From assembly GCA_045644225.1 (NCBI GenBank), contig JAZRGP010000465.1, forward strand, positions 1 through 25,386: a DNA stretch of 25,386 nucleotides, in the 5' to 3' direction. This DNA comes from Christensenellaceae bacterium. GTDB taxonomy: Bacteria > Bacillota > Clostridia > Christensenellales > Christensenellaceae. The translations under genes and the position numbers were made by a program. The notes under the pieces were generated by a model. The model ran no database searches. It was given only the letters and a program-made list of their open reading frames with translations, and was not told where the DNA came from. Shown here in pieces: positions 16,449-23,177 of this stretch (the first letter of the stretch is position 1; each line of letters starts with the position of its first letter).

Positions 16449-16694
16449 ATGGATGAACGAGATAGGAGCAGCCTAAGAGAAAAACGGGATCAGGCCGAAC
16501 GAAAAATGGAAAGATTGCGCCGCGAGCTTGCAGAAATCACCGCCGTGATAAAAAAAGATCCCAACCGTGAGTTGGGATATGACAAAGAGGCCTGTGATAA
16601 AAATATGGAGTTAAGTGCTGCAATACAAGATTTTCTAATTGCAGAAAGGGAATATAACGGAGATAAGTCTGAATATTATTGCTTGTGGAAATGA
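16449..16694 (+). CDS. Small charged, coiled-coil-like hypothetical protein
   Basis: 81 aa from ATG 16449 (alternative start 16431), GGAG upstream. The 3' end overlaps the agrB stop convergently by 19 bp. Confidence 0.45.
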   Translation: MDERDRSSLREKRDQAERKMERLRRELAEITAVIKKDPNRELGYDKEACDKNMELSAAIQDFLIAEREYNGDKSEYYCLWK

Positions 16695-17236
16695 CCAATC
16701 AATGTGGAAATGGTGGAAGACAAAATCCCCAACAGTGCCGCAAATGGCAACGCATTATCCATAAGAAAATGCATAATCAAAACTAAGGCAGTTTCGATCA
16801 GTATGATGATACGAGCTGCTTTTTTTGTTCTCTGGATTTTTTCTTCGGATAACGGATGATTCGAGTGGATTACAGGAGCAAATGCAAATATTATTGCTAT
16901 GCTGAGCACCAAGCCCACATAAATGATCCAATCATAAGAGGACAGCCATGATGCAGCAAACATACATAACGTGCCGATTGATACAGAAAAAATAACACAG
17001 CCAATGTGATTAGATGCATGAAGGCCTCCCGAATGGTGTCTGATTGGCAAGAAGAATATAATCCAAAACAAAGTAATAAGAAAGCGACTAAAAATTGCTC
17101 CCAAGATCAATAGAATACTAAAAATAAAAGTCGTATTTAATAAGCATTCTATTGCGTAGGCGTAAATTTCTACATTTTCAAGGTCCGCACCGTTATTTAC
17201 CAATTTTTCTGCAAGACGATTTGCCAACTTATTCAT
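16676..17236 (-). CDS. agrB: AgrB-family autoinducing-peptide processing membrane peptidase
   Basis: EIYAYAIE, RHHSGGLHASNHIGC (catalytic His and Cys pattern), FAPVIHSNHPL, multiple TM segments. Confidence 0.9.
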   Translation of the reverse strand: MNKLANRLAEKLVNNGADLENVEIYAYAIECLLNTTFIFSILLILGAIFSRFLITLFWIIFFLPIRHHSGGLHASNHIGCVIFSVSIGTLCMFAASWLSSYDWIIYVGLVLSIAIIFAFAPVIHSNHPLSEEKIQRTKKAARIIILIETALVLIMHFLMDNALPFAALLGILSSTISTLIGHFHKQ

Positions 17237-17243
17237 AAAAACC

Positions 17244-17954
17244 TCAACTATATAAATAGATCCACTTGTCTTTTACCTGCTTTGAAAAAGATTCTCCTAT
17301 CGGAATAGATTCTCCATTTATTAGCTGTAAGGAATCCGGTTGAATGGACTGAACCGCATCAATATTAACAATAAAAGATCGATGGCATCTAACAAATTCT
17401 ATTGGTAAAACTTCATCTAAATCCTTAAGTCGTTTCCACTCTTTGTATTTAGCATTTTTCGTATGGATCTCAATATGCTGTGTATAGTTTGTGAAATACA
17501 AAATATCGCGGAACAGAATTTTTGCGCTCTCTTTTTTGCTTTTATAAAAATAGTGAGCTGGTTTTCGATTTTCAATTATGGTATACACTTTATCCAAGTA
17601 TTGTTTAATGCGAGGCGGTCGAAGGGGCTTAAGAAGATATTTCAATGCATGCACATCATATCCTTCACTCATGTATTCGACATTACTGGTTAAGAAAATA
17701 ATAATCACATCATTATCTTTTTTGCGAATTGTTTCAGCCACTTCCATCCCGTTAGGACCGCCGGGAAGCACAATGTCCAAAAATAACAAATCAAAAGAAT
17801 TCTCCTCATCATATTCAAATAAGAAAGTTGAACTCGAATAATACTCCTTAATTTCTACAATACATCCGTTGTCTTTTGACCAAGCCTTTATAATCTTTTT
17901 AAGCTGATCACTCAAAACCTGTTCATCTTCCAGTATTCCGATCTTAATTTTCAT
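17244..17954 (-). CDS. agrA: LytTR-family response regulator (AgrA-like)
   Basis: Receiver domain ILEDE...DLLFLDI and LytTR motif FVRCHRSFIVN. Start placed at ATG 17954 after AGGAG. Confidence 0.88.
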   Translation of the reverse strand: MKIKIGILEDEQVLSDQLKKIIKAWSKDNGCIVEIKEYYSSSTFLFEYDEENSFDLLFLDIVLPGGPNGMEVAETIRKKDNDVIIIFLTSNVEYMSEGYDVHALKYLLKPLRPPRIKQYLDKVYTIIENRKPAHYFYKSKKESAKILFRDILYFTNYTQHIEIHTKNAKYKEWKRLKDLDEVLPIEFVRCHRSFIVNIDAVQSIQPDSLQLINGESIPIGESFSKQVKDKWIYLYS

Positions 17955-17965
17955 AAACACTCTCC

Positions 17966-19267
17966 TTATATGGTGGGAATAAACAATTTAATTTGAAAAT
18001 AATCTTCTCCGGGTTCTATTTGATAAAATGCATTATATTTTTTCAAACAGCGTTCCATACCGGCTAATCCTTTTCCGTGGTTTGGCTCGGTTTTTATGGT
18101 TTTGAGCCGATTTCTGCTGTAAGAATAGGTACCATTACTGCTGTTAAGTATATCAATATGAATCATATTCTTTATCTGTTGTACGGAAATATCTATATAT
18201 CTCGAATTCTCATCAATAATTCCTTGGCAGGCTTCGATTGCATTCGTTAATAGATTCCCCAATACAATGCTGATTTCTGAATCACTGATAACACAATTAC
18301 CGATTCTTGAAATGCTAACTATTGTTTGAATTTTATTAGCACGAGCAATAATAAGTTTGCTTGCAATACAAGCATCTATTGCCGGGTTTCCGGTTGATTG
18401 AACCTCAATGATTTCGTCAATATTGCGATGCATCTCCCCTAACCGCTTATGGAGATTATCCATGTCGTTATTATTGGCATATTGCTGTAAAACTTCGATA
18501 TGATTATTTACATCATGATGCCAAGCAGCAATCAGTTCCTTCGATCTTTTAATACTCTCCTCTTCCATTGCTGCTATCTTTAATTGATTCTCTATTTCAG
18601 CTTTTTCATAACTGGATCGCCCAATCTTTTCAAAAAGAAAAATAATAGCAATCAGCATAGCAAGAATGGCAAAACTGATCGTAATTAAAATGTTCCGGTC
18701 TTGTGAAGATCGTTCAATCCTGATTGCAAAACCGACAATTTGGCCGACAGCAAAAACTCCGACTCCCATAATTATTATCAAAACAAGGTGATACACCATA
18801 GGCGTTTCTATTTTTGTATTCTTTTTAGGAATTCTTGAAAGAAGCCAATGAAGCGAAATTACAATGAGAATATAGAAAACCTGGACACCAAAACGTGCTG
18901 GAGATGGAGATAATGTATCGACAATATCAATGCCGCTAAATAAGGGAAGTAGATTTGAAACAATAAGATTAGTAATCTGGGATACGCCAGGCCCAATGAT
19001 TCCCCAAAATATTTTCAAAGTTGCAGAGCCCTCAAAGCAAACAATTGCATATAAAAGCGACACAAAAAATCCAACCATAATCGCATAGATAAAAGAAAGA
19101 TTTGCAAGGTTTATAGTTGTCATTGTCACAACCATAATAATCAATCCTAAAATCACAGGCTTTCTTTTGTTTGGAGAATATCCTAATTGTTTTCTAAACA
19201 AATAAGATATAAAAAAACACTCCAAAAAATTTACTACTATTTCCCACACACTCCAAAGTATTTGCAT
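17966..19267 (-). CDS. agrC: GHKL sensor histidine kinase (AgrC-like)
   Basis: About 6 N-terminal TM segments, H-box WHHDVNNH, N-box LGNLLTNAIEA, G-box HGKGL. Confidence 0.85.
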   Translation of the reverse strand: MQILWSVWEIVVNFLECFFISYLFRKQLGYSPNKRKPVILGLIIMVVTMTTINLANLSFIYAIMVGFFVSLLYAIVCFEGSATLKIFWGIIGPGVSQITNLIVSNLLPLFSGIDIVDTLSPSPARFGVQVFYILIVISLHWLLSRIPKKNTKIETPMVYHLVLIIIMGVGVFAVGQIVGFAIRIERSSQDRNILITISFAILAMLIAIIFLFEKIGRSSYEKAEIENQLKIAAMEEESIKRSKELIAAWHHDVNNHIEVLQQYANNNDMDNLHKRLGEMHRNIDEIIEVQSTGNPAIDACIASKLIIARANKIQTIVSISRIGNCVISDSEISIVLGNLLTNAIEACQGIIDENSRYIDISVQQIKNMIHIDILNSSNGTYSYSRNRLKTIKTEPNHGKGLAGMERCLKKYNAFYQIEPGEDYFQIKLFIPTI

Positions 19268-19296
19268 ATTATCAATCCTTACATATTTTTTCTATA

Positions 19297-19324
19297 ATTA
19301 TAGTATAAAGGCTATATTTATCAA
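19297..19324 (-). promoter_or_regulatory. Candidate promoter of the agrC-agrA-agrB operon
   Basis: Minus-strand TTGATA (19324-19319), 16-bp spacer, TATAAT (19302-19297). Confidence 0.5.
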
Positions 19325-19331
19325 TGGCAAA

Positions 19332-19401
19332 AACTTTTCGTGTGATTTCGATGCCGTTTTATATAATGTTGCGACACAAGAATTTTTTCTTGTGATATAC
19401 T
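19332..19401 (+). promoter_or_regulatory. Candidate AgrA-activated agrD promoter
   Basis: Extended -10 TGaTATACT (19393-19401) with no good -35. Imperfect 9-mers spaced 21 bp (AACTTTTCG 19332, GCCGTTTTA 19353). 8-bp inverted repeat CACAAGAA/TTCTTGTG (19375-19394). Confidence 0.45.
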
Positions 19402-19441
19402 CCAATCATCCAATTACTACTCTTTATAAAGGAGCAATAAA

Positions 19442-19585
19442 ATGAATAAGGAAAACAAGAATCTCAAAAAATCCATTGTAAAAACAACGGAAAAATCTTT
19501 GATGAGTATTGCGGATCTTTTCGCAACGATGCCTTGCATGGGTCCGTGGTACGAGGTAAAAGTGCCTCAGAAAATTCAGAAGTAA
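19442..19585 (+). CDS. agrD: AgrD cyclic thiolactone autoinducer precursor (47 aa; absent from the ORF track)
   Basis: MNKENKNLKKSIVKTTEKSLMSIADLFATMPCMGPWYEVKVPQKIQK. Has Cys plus 4 residues followed by YEVKVP, RBS AAGGAG, and sits next to agrC/A/B. Confidence 0.88.
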   Translation: MNKENKNLKKSIVKTTEKSLMSIADLFATMPCMGPWYEVKVPQKIQK

Positions 19586-19598
19586 TATGAGGCGAAGC

Positions 19599-19650
19599 GT
19601 ATAAGAGGCTATATATAGCCTCTTATACCCCATAGCTATGGGGTATAAGA
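19599..19650. repeat. Two overlapping perfect 30-bp palindromes
   Basis: GTATAAGAGGCTATATATAGCCTCTTATAC (19599-19628) and TCTTATACCCCATAGCTATGGGGTATAAGA (19621-19650) share TCTTATAC. Confidence 0.9.
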
Positions 19651-19653
19651 AAC

Positions 19654-19743
19654 GGGGGGGATGTTATGATTGAATAAAAAAATCCTTGATAATCAAGAGT
19701 GCGGACTCACATCAGCATAAAACTGATGACGATCATCAAGGAT
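19654..19743 (+). promoter_or_regulatory. Conserved leader copy 1: SD plus M-I-E-stop micro-ORF plus predicted three-stem RNA
   Basis: ATG ATT GAA TAA (19666-19677) after a G-run. Stems ATCCTTGAT/ATCAAGGAT, GAGT/ACTC and CATCAG/CTGATG. 53 of 62 bases are identical to copy 2. Confidence 0.55.
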
Positions 19744-19806
19744 AAAAAAAGTATAACACAAAGAAACAAAAAAATCAAATGAACAAAATATGAAAGGAGA
19801 ATAACA

Positions 19807-20199
19807 ATGAAAAAGGCACTGAAAAGATTGGTCGCATGTGTTGCTGTCGTTGTGATGGTTTTCGCGATGAGCACAACGGTTTTTGCGGCAGGCGAAGAAT
19901 TGATTCACTCTGGAACATCCACATCGGGTTATTATACATCCCAGAGTGTTCCTCAGAAAAATGATACTCAGCTCAAATGCCTGAGTTATGAAACCTCTGG
20001 TAACATCAAAGTCTATGCCGTTTATCACAACGGATCTCAGTATATTGCTCTTTCGGATCACGAAATTTTACACACGAAACCCACATTAATTTTACCCAAA
20101 AGTAGTAGTCTTAGAAATGTTAAACTTCGCGTTTACAACTATGGTAGCTCCTCTGGTGTAAGCACATATTCTAGAGGCCACTGGAGACTTTACGCATAA
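19807..20199 (+). CDS. Secreted protein, paralog 1 (Sec signal peptide)
   Basis: 130 aa, signal MKKALKRLVA...TTVFAA, RBS AAAGGAG. 94 of 130 residues are identical to paralog 2. Confidence 0.85.
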   Translation: MKKALKRLVACVAVVVMVFAMSTTVFAAGEELIHSGTSTSGYYTSQSVPQKNDTQLKCLSYETSGNIKVYAVYHNGSQYIALSDHEILHTKPTLILPKSSSLRNVKLRVYNYGSSSGVSTYSRGHWRLYA

Positions 20200-20216
20200 T
20201 TGCAGATTCGAACCGG

Positions 20217-20243
20217 AAGGCAGGGTAACACCTGCCTTTTCTT
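20217..20243 (+). terminator. Intrinsic terminator after secreted paralog 1
   Basis: AAGGCAGG-GTAACA-CCTGCCTT followed by TTCTT. Confidence 0.65.
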
Positions 20244-20271
20244 AAAAAAGAGTAGAAAGAAGAATGCCGAT

Positions 20272-21654
20272 ATGATAAACAAATATTTTAAAAATGCAAT
20301 AAGTCTCTTCTGGGTTGTAGCTTCACTTATCACCATCACTGCATGCCAACCGACTCCTGAAAAACCAATTATTATAAGTAAAAATGACAACCTTGAAGAA
20401 AAAATACTTTCAGAAGAAATGGAATCCAGTTTCGATAATTTAGACGAAAAATGGTGCTTTGAAAAAGAATATGATGAAGGAAAAAAACTAAGAATTAATG
20501 CCTCTGTTTTTAACAACAATACATCCAATATACCTGTTGTTTCAATTGCAGAGAATCCTTATTCGGGAAATATTGGTTTAATTAAAAAAATTATTGGTTA
20601 TTTCTGCGATGAAAGTTTTGAGTTGCTCGAGGGAGTCAATGAACCAACAAAAGCAGATATCCAAAAAGAAATAATTAGAATGAAACAAGCGTTACAGGAA
20701 GCAAAACAAGAAGGCGATCCTGAAGATGTTATTACCACTTATGAAAATACAGTAAAAGAATTAGAACGTCAATTTAAAGAAGCACCTGCTGCATCAGAGG
20801 CAACAAAAACAGATTATAAACTGAAAGAAGCAGATGATGGTTCTTATCAATTAAACATAGTAGCAACACAAAACGGAGAATCCAAGTATGAAATTGATTT
20901 TGTAGACTGGATTAATACAAAAGGCTCATTGTTACTAATACAAGATAAAAAAACAGATAACTATAGTAGCGAATACACTTTTAAATATGTGCCACAGGAT
21001 TATTTAGAAAGCGATGAGAATTTTCAGAACGGCAAAAAAATTATTGATAGTTATTTGTCCGAGATTGGTTTGGATTATCTTAACCTAAATCTTGTTTCCG
21101 GTAACATTGAAGAAAACACATATGAATATTATTTCACCAGATCTGTAAATGGTTTAAATGAAGGATATGTAAATAGTTATTTCGGATCCATGCAAAGTGA
21201 TGAAGATATTATGATGGATTTGTGGTATGCAGAATCTATGCTGGTGAGAGTTACAGACGGTAAGATTACTTATATTAAATGGGATAACCCTTCTTTGGTA
21301 ACTGGAGTTGATAATGATAATGTGAGAATAATCTCATTTGAAGAAGCAAAAGAAGCATTTTTAAAGCAGATTGGTTATATGCTTGCGCCTAATATTGATG
21401 ATGAGATTGGCAAAGCCAATTATGAATTTTTTAAAGCAAATACAGCTATTAATATTACAAGAATTGAACTATCTTTGACCAAATTACTTATGAAAGACAG
21501 TGATGATTCTTATAAATTGATTCCTACATGGAATTTTTATGGCTATGAGTCCTTGAGCAGTCATAAATTTGATGAAAATCGAGGAGCCGAAATTTGCTAT
21601 GTAGCGGTCAATGCATTGGATGGAAGTATTGTTAACTACACAGCATTAAATTAA
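20272..21654 (+). CDS. Acidic lipoprotein (DUF6034-like)
   Basis: Lipobox ITA-C followed by QPTPEKPIIISK, and C-terminal LIPTWNFYG...INALDGS-type motif (VNALDGS). Start placed at ATG 20272. The family call is from memory only. Confidence 0.65.
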   Translation: MINKYFKNAISLFWVVASLITITACQPTPEKPIIISKNDNLEEKILSEEMESSFDNLDEKWCFEKEYDEGKKLRINASVFNNNTSNIPVVSIAENPYSGNIGLIKKIIGYFCDESFELLEGVNEPTKADIQKEIIRMKQALQEAKQEGDPEDVITTYENTVKELERQFKEAPAASEATKTDYKLKEADDGSYQLNIVATQNGESKYEIDFVDWINTKGSLLLIQDKKTDNYSSEYTFKYVPQDYLESDENFQNGKKIIDSYLSEIGLDYLNLNLVSGNIEENTYEYYFTRSVNGLNEGYVNSYFGSMQSDEDIMMDLWYAESMLVRVTDGKITYIKWDNPSLVTGVDNDNVRIISFEEAKEAFLKQIGYMLAPNIDDEIGKANYEFFKANTAINITRIELSLTKLLMKDSDDSYKLIPTWNFYGYESLSSHKFDENRGAEICYVAVNALDGSIVNYTALN

Positions 21655-21686
21655 TTCTCTTTGAGTAGGTATTATGTTGATAAAAA

Positions 21687-21776
21687 AGGGGTGATGCCAT
21701 GATTGCGTAGAAAATTCCTCGATAGTCATGAGTGGGGACTCACATCAATATATAACTGATGTCGATCATCAAGGAT
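21687..21776 (+). promoter_or_regulatory. Conserved leader copy 2: SD plus M-I-A-stop micro-ORF plus predicted three-stem RNA
   Basis: AGGGGTG then ATG ATT GCG TAG (21699-21710). Stems TCCTCGAT/ATCAAGGA, TGAGT/ACTCA and ACATCA/TGATGT. Confidence 0.55.
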
Positions 21777-21835
21777 AGAAGTATTGCATTTCAAAAAGAA
21801 GAATCAGATGAATTATTCATGAAAGGAGAAAAACA

Positions 21836-22228
21836 ATGAAAAAGACACTGAAAAGAATAATTGCATGTGTGGTAACAATTTTATCAATCTTTACATTTTC
21901 TACCACAGCTTTTGCAGCAGCTGAGGAATTGACACACTCTGGATACTCTACTTCAGGTTATTATACTTCGCAAAGTGTTCCACAAAAAAATGATACCCAG
22001 CTTAAATGCTTAAGTTATGAAACTACAGGAGATATTAAAGTTTTTGCATGTTATCATAACGGTTCCAACTATATTGCACTCTCCGCCTCTAAAGTATTAA
22101 CCGATAAACCCACTTTGGTTTTGTCAACAAGCAGTATCGTTCGACATGTAAAGCTTCGCGTTTATAACTACGGTAACTCCGTAGGAGTTAGAACATATTC
22201 CGCTGGACACTGGAGACTTTACGCGTAA
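21836..22228 (+). CDS. Secreted protein, paralog 2 (Sec signal peptide)
   Basis: 130 aa, colinear with paralog 1, shares the C-terminus GHWRLYA, RBS AAAGGAG. Confidence 0.85.
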   Translation: MKKTLKRIIACVVTILSIFTFSTTAFAAAEELTHSGYSTSGYYTSQSVPQKNDTQLKCLSYETTGDIKVFACYHNGSNYIALSASKVLTDKPTLVLSTSSIVRHVKLRVYNYGNSVGVRTYSAGHWRLYA

Positions 22229-22237
22229 CTAACATAC

Positions 22238-22281
22238 CTCAATAGTATGAAATGGGTAAATCCCCGTTTCATACTATTGAG
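22238..22281. terminator. Long hairpin after secreted paralog 2 (terminator or mRNA stabiliser)
   Basis: 15-bp perfect stem CTCAATAGTATGAAA/TTTCATACTATTGAG, extended by 4 bp. No clear U-tract. Confidence 0.55.
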
Positions 22282-22418
22282 TCTATCACATTTTACATAT
22301 AACAAATGAGAGATTTTTTCGAACATTTTTTGAAACATAATTGTTGGAAAAATTAAAGCAATAAATAAAAGCTTTTTAATAATAGATATAGACATAAGGT
22401 TATCAAAAGGGCAAAGAC

Positions 22419-23177
22419 ATGATACAAACAATAAAGGCTCATATTAAACAAGCATTAGGCGGTAAAGGCTTTTTGATTGGATCAATAAGCATTGCTATTG
22501 TATTACTATTATCTGTTATTGAACAAATAATTAGCGGTTTCCGCGCAGAAGATCTGCTAGGATATGGATTTCATCATTACATGATCCTCGATGCACTGAC
22601 GTCAGATGCCATGACGCTGGTTTTGCCCATCGCCGCGGCACTGCCCTTTACGGCATCGTTTCTCGATGATTACAAAAGCGGATTCATCAAGGGATACCTC
22701 CCGAGAACGAATATCGCAGGATACCTGGGCGGAAAGATTGCAGGTTGTATTATCTCAGGTGGGTTGGTACTAGCCGCAGGGGTGTTCATGGCGTATATCG
22801 TTGCAGCGTTGATGTTCACGCCCATGGAGGCGGTCGCTCCGCCATTGCAGGAGCCGCTCTTCCTCGAGATCCTCGGGAGATTGGGATTGTTCTTCTGTGC
22901 AGGCGCGTTCTGGGCGCTCATCGGGATGCTCTTCGCGACGCTCACGGGCAGCAGATATATGGCGTATGCTTCGCCTTTCGTGGTGTATTATGTGCTGATC
23001 ATCCTCTATGAGCGGTATTTCGATAAGATGTATGTGCTTTACCCGAAAGAGTGGGTCGCGCCCTCGGCGCAGTGGATCTACGGGAATGCAGGTGTGGTTA
23101 TCTTCCTCGTTGAACTTATTATTCTCGCGGCGATTGGTTGTGGGATCGCGATGCGAAGAAAGATCCGTAACATATAG
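22419..23177 (+). CDS. ABC transporter permease
   Basis: About 6 TM segments, LPFTASFLDDYKSGFIKGYLPR motif, in an operon with an ABC ATPase. Confidence 0.75.
   Translation: MIQTIKAHIKQALGGKGFLIGSISIAIVLLLSVIEQIISGFRAEDLLGYGFHHYMILDALTSDAMTLVLPIAAALPFTASFLDDYKSGFIKGYLPRTNIAGYLGGKIAGCIISGGLVLAAGVFMAYIVAALMFTPMEAVAPPLQEPLFLEILGRLGLFFCAGAFWALIGMLFATLTGSRYMAYASPFVVYYVLIILYERYFDKMYVLYPKEWVAPSAQWIYGNAGVVIFLVELIILAAIGCGIAMRRKIRNI

Follow-up and report, generated by a model that had tools for sequence, protein, structure and literature searches.

The lambda bar minigenes consist of a strong Shine-Dalgarno (SD) sequence, the codons AUG AUA UAA and A-rich sequence after the stop, and they are known for toxicity through peptidyl-tRNA drop-off. 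In leaders of Firmicute mRNAs such as cryIIIA, aprE and ermC, a strong SD far upstream of the gene (STAB-SD) holds a ribosome and protects the mRNA from 5'-to-3' decay, for which no start codon is needed. RNA-OUT of IS10 is a minimal cis-antisense RNA made of a hairpin and a U-tail and shares its general layout with RNAII of pMV158. RNAII is described as an antisense RNA of 50-70 nucleotides (nt) with hairpin and U-tail, whose promoter lies inside the target leader and points upstream (PMC4485353). The antisense RNA CopA of plasmid R1 inhibits translation of the tap leader peptide (PMC12361487). Here we analyse a conserved block found twice in a 25,386-nt stretch of a Christensenellaceae genome (contig JAZRGP010000465.1 of assembly GCA_045644225.1, positions 1 to 25,386; this whole stretch is called the window), each copy upstream of one of two paralogous genes for small secreted proteins. 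Judged from sequence, we hold it to be fairly probable that the block is a two-strand module, in which a cis-antisense small RNA (sRNA) of ~65-80 nt acts on a sense leader that bears an open reading frame (ORF) of very few codons (micro-ORF). Such a module of cis-antisense sRNA and micro-ORF appears to be uncatalogued.

Few members of the human gut flora are as heritable and as closely linked to health as the Christensenellaceae. A literature search for RNA regulators or sRNAs of this family found none.

Two copies of a constrained block

On the plus strand each copy starts with a G-run that serves as SD, followed by a spacer of ~5 nt, a micro-ORF of the form M-I-x-stop and a block of 62 nt. 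A preliminary description of the region had named these parts, and all of them are present in both copies. The features are listed below; those assigned to the sRNA are predictions.

19654..19662, plus strand: extended SD of the micro-ORF, copy 1 (G-run, then AT)
19666..19677, plus strand: micro-ORF, copy 1, ATG ATT GAA TAA (M-I-E-stop); 4 nt separate the stop from the stem
19682..19743, minus strand: core of the putative antisense sRNA, copy 1; preceded on the plus strand by an A4 spacer; 84.1 bits with covariance model R1 (see below)
19673..19681, minus strand: putative U-tail, copy 1, TTTTTTATT; 8/9 T; complementary to the A-spacer and to the TAA of the micro-ORF
19773..19778, minus strand: -35 box TTGATT of the predicted sRNA promoter, copy 1; 17-nt spacing to TATACT
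19750..19758, minus strand: extended -10 box TGtTATACT of the predicted sRNA promoter, copy 1; 6 nt lie between its end and the outer stem
21686..21695, plus strand: extended SD of the micro-ORF, copy 2, AAGGGGTGAT
21699..21710, plus strand: micro-ORF, copy 2, ATG ATT GCG TAG (M-I-A-stop); 4 nt separate the stop from the stem
21715..21776, minus strand: core of the putative antisense sRNA, copy 2; architecture of copy 1 with a weaker fold; A4 spacer; 76.3 bits with R1
21706..21714, minus strand: putative U-tail, copy 2, TTTTCTACG; 5/9 T
21780..21788, minus strand: TGcAATACT, sole candidate element of an sRNA promoter in copy 2; 3 nt from the stem, without a good -35 box and doubtful

In the core of copy 1 the predicted outer stem pairs 19743-19730 with 19695-19682. 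Hairpin A is formed by 19728-19722 with 19716-19710 and hairpin B by 19708-19705 with 19700-19697.

Recomputing the identity between the copies returned the 53/62 given before for the block, and 74/90 over the full 90 nt. At the nucleotide level the two paralogs are 71% identical in their coding sequences, and 43 of their 94 same-residue codons differ synonymously. Our recount for their invariant block of 26 aa likewise arrived at the 12 synonymous differences first noted. Compared to these diverged synonymous codons the non-coding block is better conserved than neutral sites and hence under constraint, which is what had been proposed.

The conserved structure and its strand

The preliminary description had folded the plus strand into an outer stem with two hairpins. 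Both copies carry this three-way junction; for copy 1 it is significant (62 nt, -21.5 kcal/mol, z = -5.5), for copy 2 it is not (-15.4 kcal/mol, z = -1.3). The minimum free energy (MFE) of both cores is lower on the minus strand (copy 1: -26.2 versus -21.5 kcal/mol; copy 2: -21.2 versus -15.4 kcal/mol), where the 90-nt stretches reach -26.3 kcal/mol (copy 1) and -21.5 kcal/mol (copy 2). The T-to-C change that had been reported to break the outer stem of copy 2 is indeed a mismatch on the plus strand and a G·U pair on the minus strand. An A-to-G change in copy 2 that keeps a G-U pair on the plus strand, which had been put forward in support of a sense structure, turned out to be a minority pattern: most non-Watson-Crick positions are C·A on plus, corresponding to G·U on minus.

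A covariance model (R1) was built from homologous leaders, as had been recommended; the element recurs, far more than chance allows, in dozens of loci of other genera and carries compensatory changes. R1 matches with E above 1e-4 include plain terminators of hairpin and U-run (L045-L048; the prefix L denotes our locus numbers), which are non-members. Four weak matches remain in alignment A5 and add to helix 1 only. In the model alignment of 32 sequences all 24 pairs (24/24) show changes on both sides, and 89.9% of the cells are paired compared to 35-47% with slid partners, values that were reached by 0/500 shuffles. Over all pairs, 70 cells are G·U on the minus strand whereas 16 are A·C, which would be G·U on plus. 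This alignment is fitted to the structure of the model, which inflates both the pairing and the G·U counts and in this respect weakens our reading, and the related sequences that enter the counts are not independent.

Folding without any alignment points in the same direction. The MFE is lower for the minus strand in 20/24 instances and for the plus strand in 1/24, with a mean difference of -5.2 kcal/mol, and plain MFE folding predicts a near-identical architecture for each sequence separately. In a MAFFT alignment folded with RNAalifold, one outer-stem pair of the minus strand is U·G in 9/16 sequences; read on the plus strand, this pair becomes C·A and is dropped.

The internal hairpins keep their pairing while their sequence is wholly changed, and up to four helices covary. 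The arms of the outer stem are conserved in sequence across genera, beyond what pairing demands. Their consensus on the minus strand is GUCCUUGC...GYAAGGAC, around one or two internal hairpins of free sequence (only one in L040, L043, L044 and L056). In Rfam 15 (cmscan of 19000-22500, both strands, E up to 10) nothing overlaps either block. With the covariation at 24/24 pairs, the early notion of a conserved but undescribed element acting at the RNA level is thereby borne out. Based on the folding energies, the asymmetry of G·U and A·C, and the fixed promoter and U-tail described in the following, the selected structure appears to belong to the minus strand.

Promoter and U-tail on the minus strand

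Nearly every lineage has a near-consensus sigma-70 promoter, with -35 and -10 boxes 16-18 nt apart, which is located between the secreted gene and the block and reads away from this gene. Examples are TTGACA-17-TATAAT, TTGAAT-17-TATAAT and TTGTCA-17-TGcTATACT; copy 1 of the window has TTGATT-17-TGtTATACT at 19778-19750. A2 and T6 of the -10 box are present in all, and the box ends 6-10 nt before the first stem base in 29/31 instances. The promoters score 10.0 on average; the plus strand of this region reaches 7.2, and the best site within the 120 nt upstream 8.1-8.4. In a position-restricted shuffle test 16/24 lineages individually fall below 0.05. Window copy 1 scores 10, which is reached by 0.002 of the shuffles.

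The first stem pair covaries between G-C and A-U. The transcript should therefore include this pair and start at or before it, as the promoter predicts. Behind the stem a mean of 6.5/9 positions are T on the minus strand versus 2.5/9 on plus. Promoter, structure of 55-75 nt and U-tail together appear to form a small RNA gene. Two hallmarks of a cis-antisense RNA are thus found: an opposite-strand promoter of its own placed at the structured RNA (except in window copy 2), and a stable stem-loop on the antisense strand that ends in an intrinsic terminator, as indicated by covariation, folding, G·U ratio and U-tail. A consensus terminator scan, restricted to loops of 3-8 nt, missed the element.

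We also considered the minus-strand RNA as the leader of a minus-strand gene and rejected this, since roughly half of the loci have a plus-strand gene as the neighbour on that side.

In the sub-clade with the stem GTCCTTRC...GYAAGGAC (L035-L044, L055-L062) a conserved TATA adjoins the stem, 5' of GTCC on minus (GGAC-TATA on plus). It could be the start region of the sRNA or a -10 box of the plus strand.

A promoter facing incoming sense transcription, with a predicted transcript that ends after ~70 nt, is also what one would expect of transcriptional interference or of an insulator, where the promoter would act as roadblock or collision partner and the folded RNA would be a mere compact terminator. 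That the element stands between same-strand cistrons in several loci and has a single internal hairpin in L040, L043, L044 and L056 agrees with this. For termination, however, a plain hairpin would do, yet up to four helices covary and the sequence of the outer stem is conserved; moreover the SD and micro-ORF conserved beside such a terminator find no explanation. We thus regard interference as improbable.

The same features bear on the possibility that the element folds as single-stranded DNA, in the manner of an attC-like recombination site or of the single-strand origin of a mobile element. An imperfect inverted repeat of 55-75 nt with strand-specific G·T pairs, present in several copies beside small cassette-like genes, has some resemblance to these. 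The sequences inspected show no evident integron-type core sites (GTTRRRY), the sigma-70 promoter and U-tail point to transcription, and SD and micro-ORF would again be left unaccounted for. We would give such an element hardly any weight.

The micro-ORF and sense transcription

The extended SD of the plus strand (GGAGGTGAT-like) lies beyond the U-tail and hence outside the predicted sRNA, and the box starts 12-14 nt upstream of the start codon in all lineages. Most lineages start with ATG and three with TTG, at the identical position. The start codon opens ORFs of three codons (MIE, MIA, MIV, MGK, MGI, MGN, MEN, MDK, MDI, MKI, MGY, MRV) or five (MIDHT, MIVHT, MIVCT, MIVRT, MIAHT, MIVHI), lengths that differ by whole codons. 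TAA, TAG and TGA are all used at the stop position, the stop stands 2-5 nt before the stem, and ~16/20 lineages conform to this pattern. The reading of the micro-ORF as an ORF, made from the window copies, therefore extends across genera. A U-tract needs no complement of a stop codon in fixed phase, so the pattern points to selection on the plus strand. The micro-ORF looks to be selected as an ORF, i.e. as a predicted translated minigene.

Guopingia tenuis (L034/L015/L019) has no early stop. Around its start codon GGGCAT...ATGCCC can pair, with the 3' arm overlapping the 5' arm of the outer stem, which may be a lineage-specific alternative pairing.

No plus-strand promoter of consistent position and quality was found between block and gene or straddling the 3' arm. 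A plus-strand promoter using the 3' arm of the stem (TTGCAA/TTGTAA) as -35 box, or a bidirectional one, was rejected as a general feature, since scores are low (mean 7.7) and positions inconsistent. Read on plus, the shared TATA core is often without the final T, which is always present when it is read on minus. In L029, L043 and window copy 2 an upstream plus-strand ORF ends only 3-35 nt before the SD. In those loci read-through from upstream would therefore cross the element, and we take sense transcription across it to be very probable there.

With a start codon, an in-frame stop and a stem 2-5 nt further on, a leader that acts on the sense strand alone has to be weighed. It would be a ligand-sensing or ribosome-coupled attenuator, whose outer stem would be opened by a ribosome translating the micro-ORF, with no part for an antisense RNA. 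The preliminary description had favoured such an attenuator, and its geometry is confirmed: given the position of the stop, a ribosome on the micro-ORF covers the 5' arm of the sense stem. The mirror structure of copy 1 on the sense strand (z = -5.5) and the plus-strand fold of L054, L041 and L042, which is as good as that on minus, are in line with it. The remaining evidence speaks for the opposite strand, namely the better minus-strand fold in 20/24 instances, the C·A state of most non-Watson-Crick positions on plus, the U-tail and the minus-strand promoter, whose fixed position the sense leader does not explain. Moreover the plus strand lacks both a U-run terminator after the stem (2.5/9 T) and an SD-sequestering helix, the stem being 55-122 nt upstream of, and without overlap with, the SD of the gene. 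The sense strand hence shows no attenuator logic, and a purely sense-strand leader appears unlikely.

Distribution of the element

SD, micro-ORF, A-spacer and stem with hairpins are located upstream of every full-length homolog of the 130-aa secreted protein in 17 loci. Homologs come from three other Christensenellaceae genera (one of them Guopingia tenuis NSJ-63, locus L015/L034) and 14 metagenome contigs. What they share upstream is a strong SD, followed by a start codon with a tiny ORF, then an A-run and the conserved outer stem arms CCTTG/CAAGG around hairpins of unrelated sequence. Scanning contigs of GTDB genomes with the alignment of the 130-aa protein returned only the three loci already known. 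Using covariance model R1, the element was found in 21/56 Christensenellaceae genomes, most of them without the 130-aa protein, and in 4/150 further genomes of the order, sampled from 42 families. The source genome of the window is a fragmented metagenome-assembled genome and contains the two block copies of the window only.

In the 31 instances examined, a small gene with Sec signal peptide follows 55-122 nt downstream on the plus strand; the exception is L062, where the element stands directly before DUF6034. The proteins encoded behind the element have 90-200 aa. Two contain PG_binding_1, the others have no Pfam family. The genes after the element (L032-L063, window 19807-22228) share a near-alike signal peptide (MKK..., hydrophobic core, often ending in STAFA) followed by unrelated mature domains. 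Leader and signal peptide thus look like a conserved 'head' on swappable cargo. In L028/L029 an additional ~60 nt lie between the element and the ribosome binding site, with a small hairpin GTCCTTGGAGAGGGAC that reuses the GTCCTTG motif.

DUF6034 is within reach in 18/31 oriented loci, mostly after the secreted gene and sometimes before the element (window copy 2). It accompanies small secreted genes in the window (20272-21654) and in L020, L028, L034, L035, L038, L041, L043, L060 and L062. Some loci are tandem arrays of element, secreted protein and DUF6034. A literature search for papers on DUF6034 found none.

Genes around the two copies

The plus strand carries, in this order, an AgrD-like ORF of 47 aa, palindromes, block copy 1, secreted gene 1, DUF6034, block copy 2 and the paralog. 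Past the paralog (21836-22228), the far end of the cluster encodes membrane proteins and an ABC ATPase. An agr-type module occupies the minus strand; according to Pfam it encodes AgrB (16676-17236), a LytTR response regulator (17244-17960) and a GHKL kinase (17966-19267).

19442..19585, plus strand: AgrD-like ORF, 47 aa; good ribosome binding site; divergent from the kinase-regulator-AgrB operon and pointing toward block copy 1
19807..20199, plus strand: target gene 1, 130-aa protein with Sec signal peptide, no Pfam family
20272..21654, plus strand: DUF6034 lipoprotein gene (Pfam PF19499, E = 7e-37)
21836..22228, plus strand: target gene 2, paralog of gene 1; 94/130 residues identical between the proteins

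The 47-aa ORF contains a CMGPW motif with Cys, followed by YEVKVPQKIQK. As the latter resembles the EVEVPKEL tail of staphylococcal AgrD, we take the ORF to be AgrD-like. Between agrD and block copy 1 two perfect palindromes of 30 nt are interlocked at 19599-19650, having an 8-nt arm in common. They are not followed by a U-run on either strand, and neither copy 2 nor the homologous loci examined have them. Their sole Rfam neighbour is DapZ at 19596-19663 on the minus strand, which at 29.8 bits stays below the gathering score of 56.

The agr module adjoining copy 1, together with the sequence conservation of the outer arms, might suggest a double-stranded DNA operator, in which the inverted repeat CCTTG...CAAGG is bound by a regulator, e.g. 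the neighbouring LytTR response regulator. A site of this kind requires no compensatory changes, which are seen at 24/24 pairs, and strand asymmetry would be meaningless for it. Moreover LytTR/AgrA operators consist of two imperfect direct repeats of ~9 bp at a spacing of ~12-13 bp; neither block has direct repeats, only the inverted repeat. An operator is thus very unlikely.

A proposed two-strand mechanism

In the antisense module that we favour, the near-consensus sigma-70 promoter would fire away from the secreted gene and yield an sRNA of ~65-80 nt, with the U-tail as intrinsic terminator. On the plus strand the same DNA would be the leader or intercistronic region of the mRNA for the secreted protein, usually with DUF6034 next. 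This leader would present the very strong SD and the micro-ORF of three (sometimes five) codons immediately 5' of the region complementary to the sRNA, with the stop codon overlapping the complement of the U-tail. The predicted sRNA would be fully complementary to the leader from A-spacer and stop codon through the end of the outer stem.

Whether it initiates or terminates on a 3-codon ORF, a ribosome occupies ~15 nt downstream of its P site. This footprint corresponds to the A-spacer and the first bases of the stem, and such a ribosome would therefore exclude pairing with the sRNA or folding of the sense stem. Ribosome and constitutive sRNA would compete for the same 15-20 nt. If the sRNA wins, the duplex would block the micro-ORF and/or be cut by RNase III, the ribosome-protected 5' end (of the STAB-SD type) would be lost, and the downstream message would decay. 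The outcome would be a threshold: leaky or read-through transcripts would be silenced, while strong induction of the sense promoter would titrate the sRNA. In this window the inducing promoter is probably the agr-controlled promoter of agrD.

Several points weigh against this interpretation, besides the fitted alignment mentioned above. Concerning the strand, the plus-strand fold equals that on minus in the three loci already named, L025 was slightly more stable on plus in an earlier folding run, and window copy 2 has the weakest fold; the sense structure may matter too. Concerning the sRNA gene, the promoter of window copy 2 is not convincing (score 7, reached by 0.55 of the shuffles, no -35 box), L032 is also without a good promoter, and a branched structure is unusual for an intrinsic terminator. 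In one sub-clade the plus strand has a TATAAT-like box immediately behind the stem, and there the transcription start site of the gene itself could be downstream of the block. Concerning the micro-ORF, four or five lineages have no short in-frame stop: Guopingia, the L036/L037/L055/L042 group, where one A fewer results in 9 codons with the stop within the stem, and L063, where TAG has become TTG in an otherwise degenerate copy. Finally, an sRNA alone would leave the conservation of SD and micro-ORF beyond the U-tail unexplained, and the link between the two strands is our inference.

A further-reaching interpretation, offered only tentatively, is that of an undescribed family from gut Christensenellaceae in which a constitutive, branched antisense sRNA and a translated 3-codon micro-ORF would compete for one stretch of mRNA. 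It would form a threshold switch gating Sec-exported, possibly bacteriocin-like, proteins with DUF6034, placed here downstream of an agr signal gene.

With the covariance model, ~30 instances and the predicted promoter, terminator and micro-ORF, a testable module is now defined. It would control a whole range of small, functionally uncharacterised secreted proteins along with their DUF6034 partners. If true, it is a clean natural case of a translated 3-codon ORF working with an antisense RNA, and it bears on the role of the many very short ORFs seen in ribosome profiling. For annotation, the lesson is that the structure conserved in a 'leader' may be that of the opposite strand.

Comparison with known systems

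CopA/CopT-tap-repA of plasmid R1, as well as Inc RNA/repY-repZ of IncI/IncB, resemble the proposed module in that a small, structured and strongly expressed antisense RNA, complementary to the leader of the target, acts beside a translated leader ORF. In contrast to R1, the ORF has only 3-5 codons here and lies 5' of the antisense target. The micro-ORF stop is ~120-190 nt upstream of the gene start and the gene has an SD of its own, so that coupling of the tap/repA type is not indicated and classical translational coupling is unlikely. Unlike in R1, the targets are genes for secreted proteins and not replication genes, and neither sequence nor Rfam indicates a relationship.

RNAII of pMV158 and RNA-OUT of IS10 share with our prediction a hairpin and U-tail antisense RNA from a promoter in the target leader. 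Whereas these two cover the ribosome binding site of the target itself, the predicted sRNA ends at the stop of an upstream micro-ORF and is usually branched.

The plus strand in turn resembles lambda bar and other minigenes of 2-3 codons, with a strong SD, a start, one or two codons, a stop and then an A-rich stretch. Unlike in bar, the micro-ORF is proposed to be the partner of an antisense RNA. As in STAB-SD leaders, a ribosome could be held at a very strong SD well ahead of the gene and protect the mRNA, whereas here start codon and in-frame stop are conserved and a predicted antisense RNA gene abuts. With the riboswitch and attenuator leaders of Rfam the block has in common a conserved, covarying multi-stem structure upstream of a gene; it differs from them in that the structure appears to be selected on the opposite strand, with its own predicted promoter and terminator.

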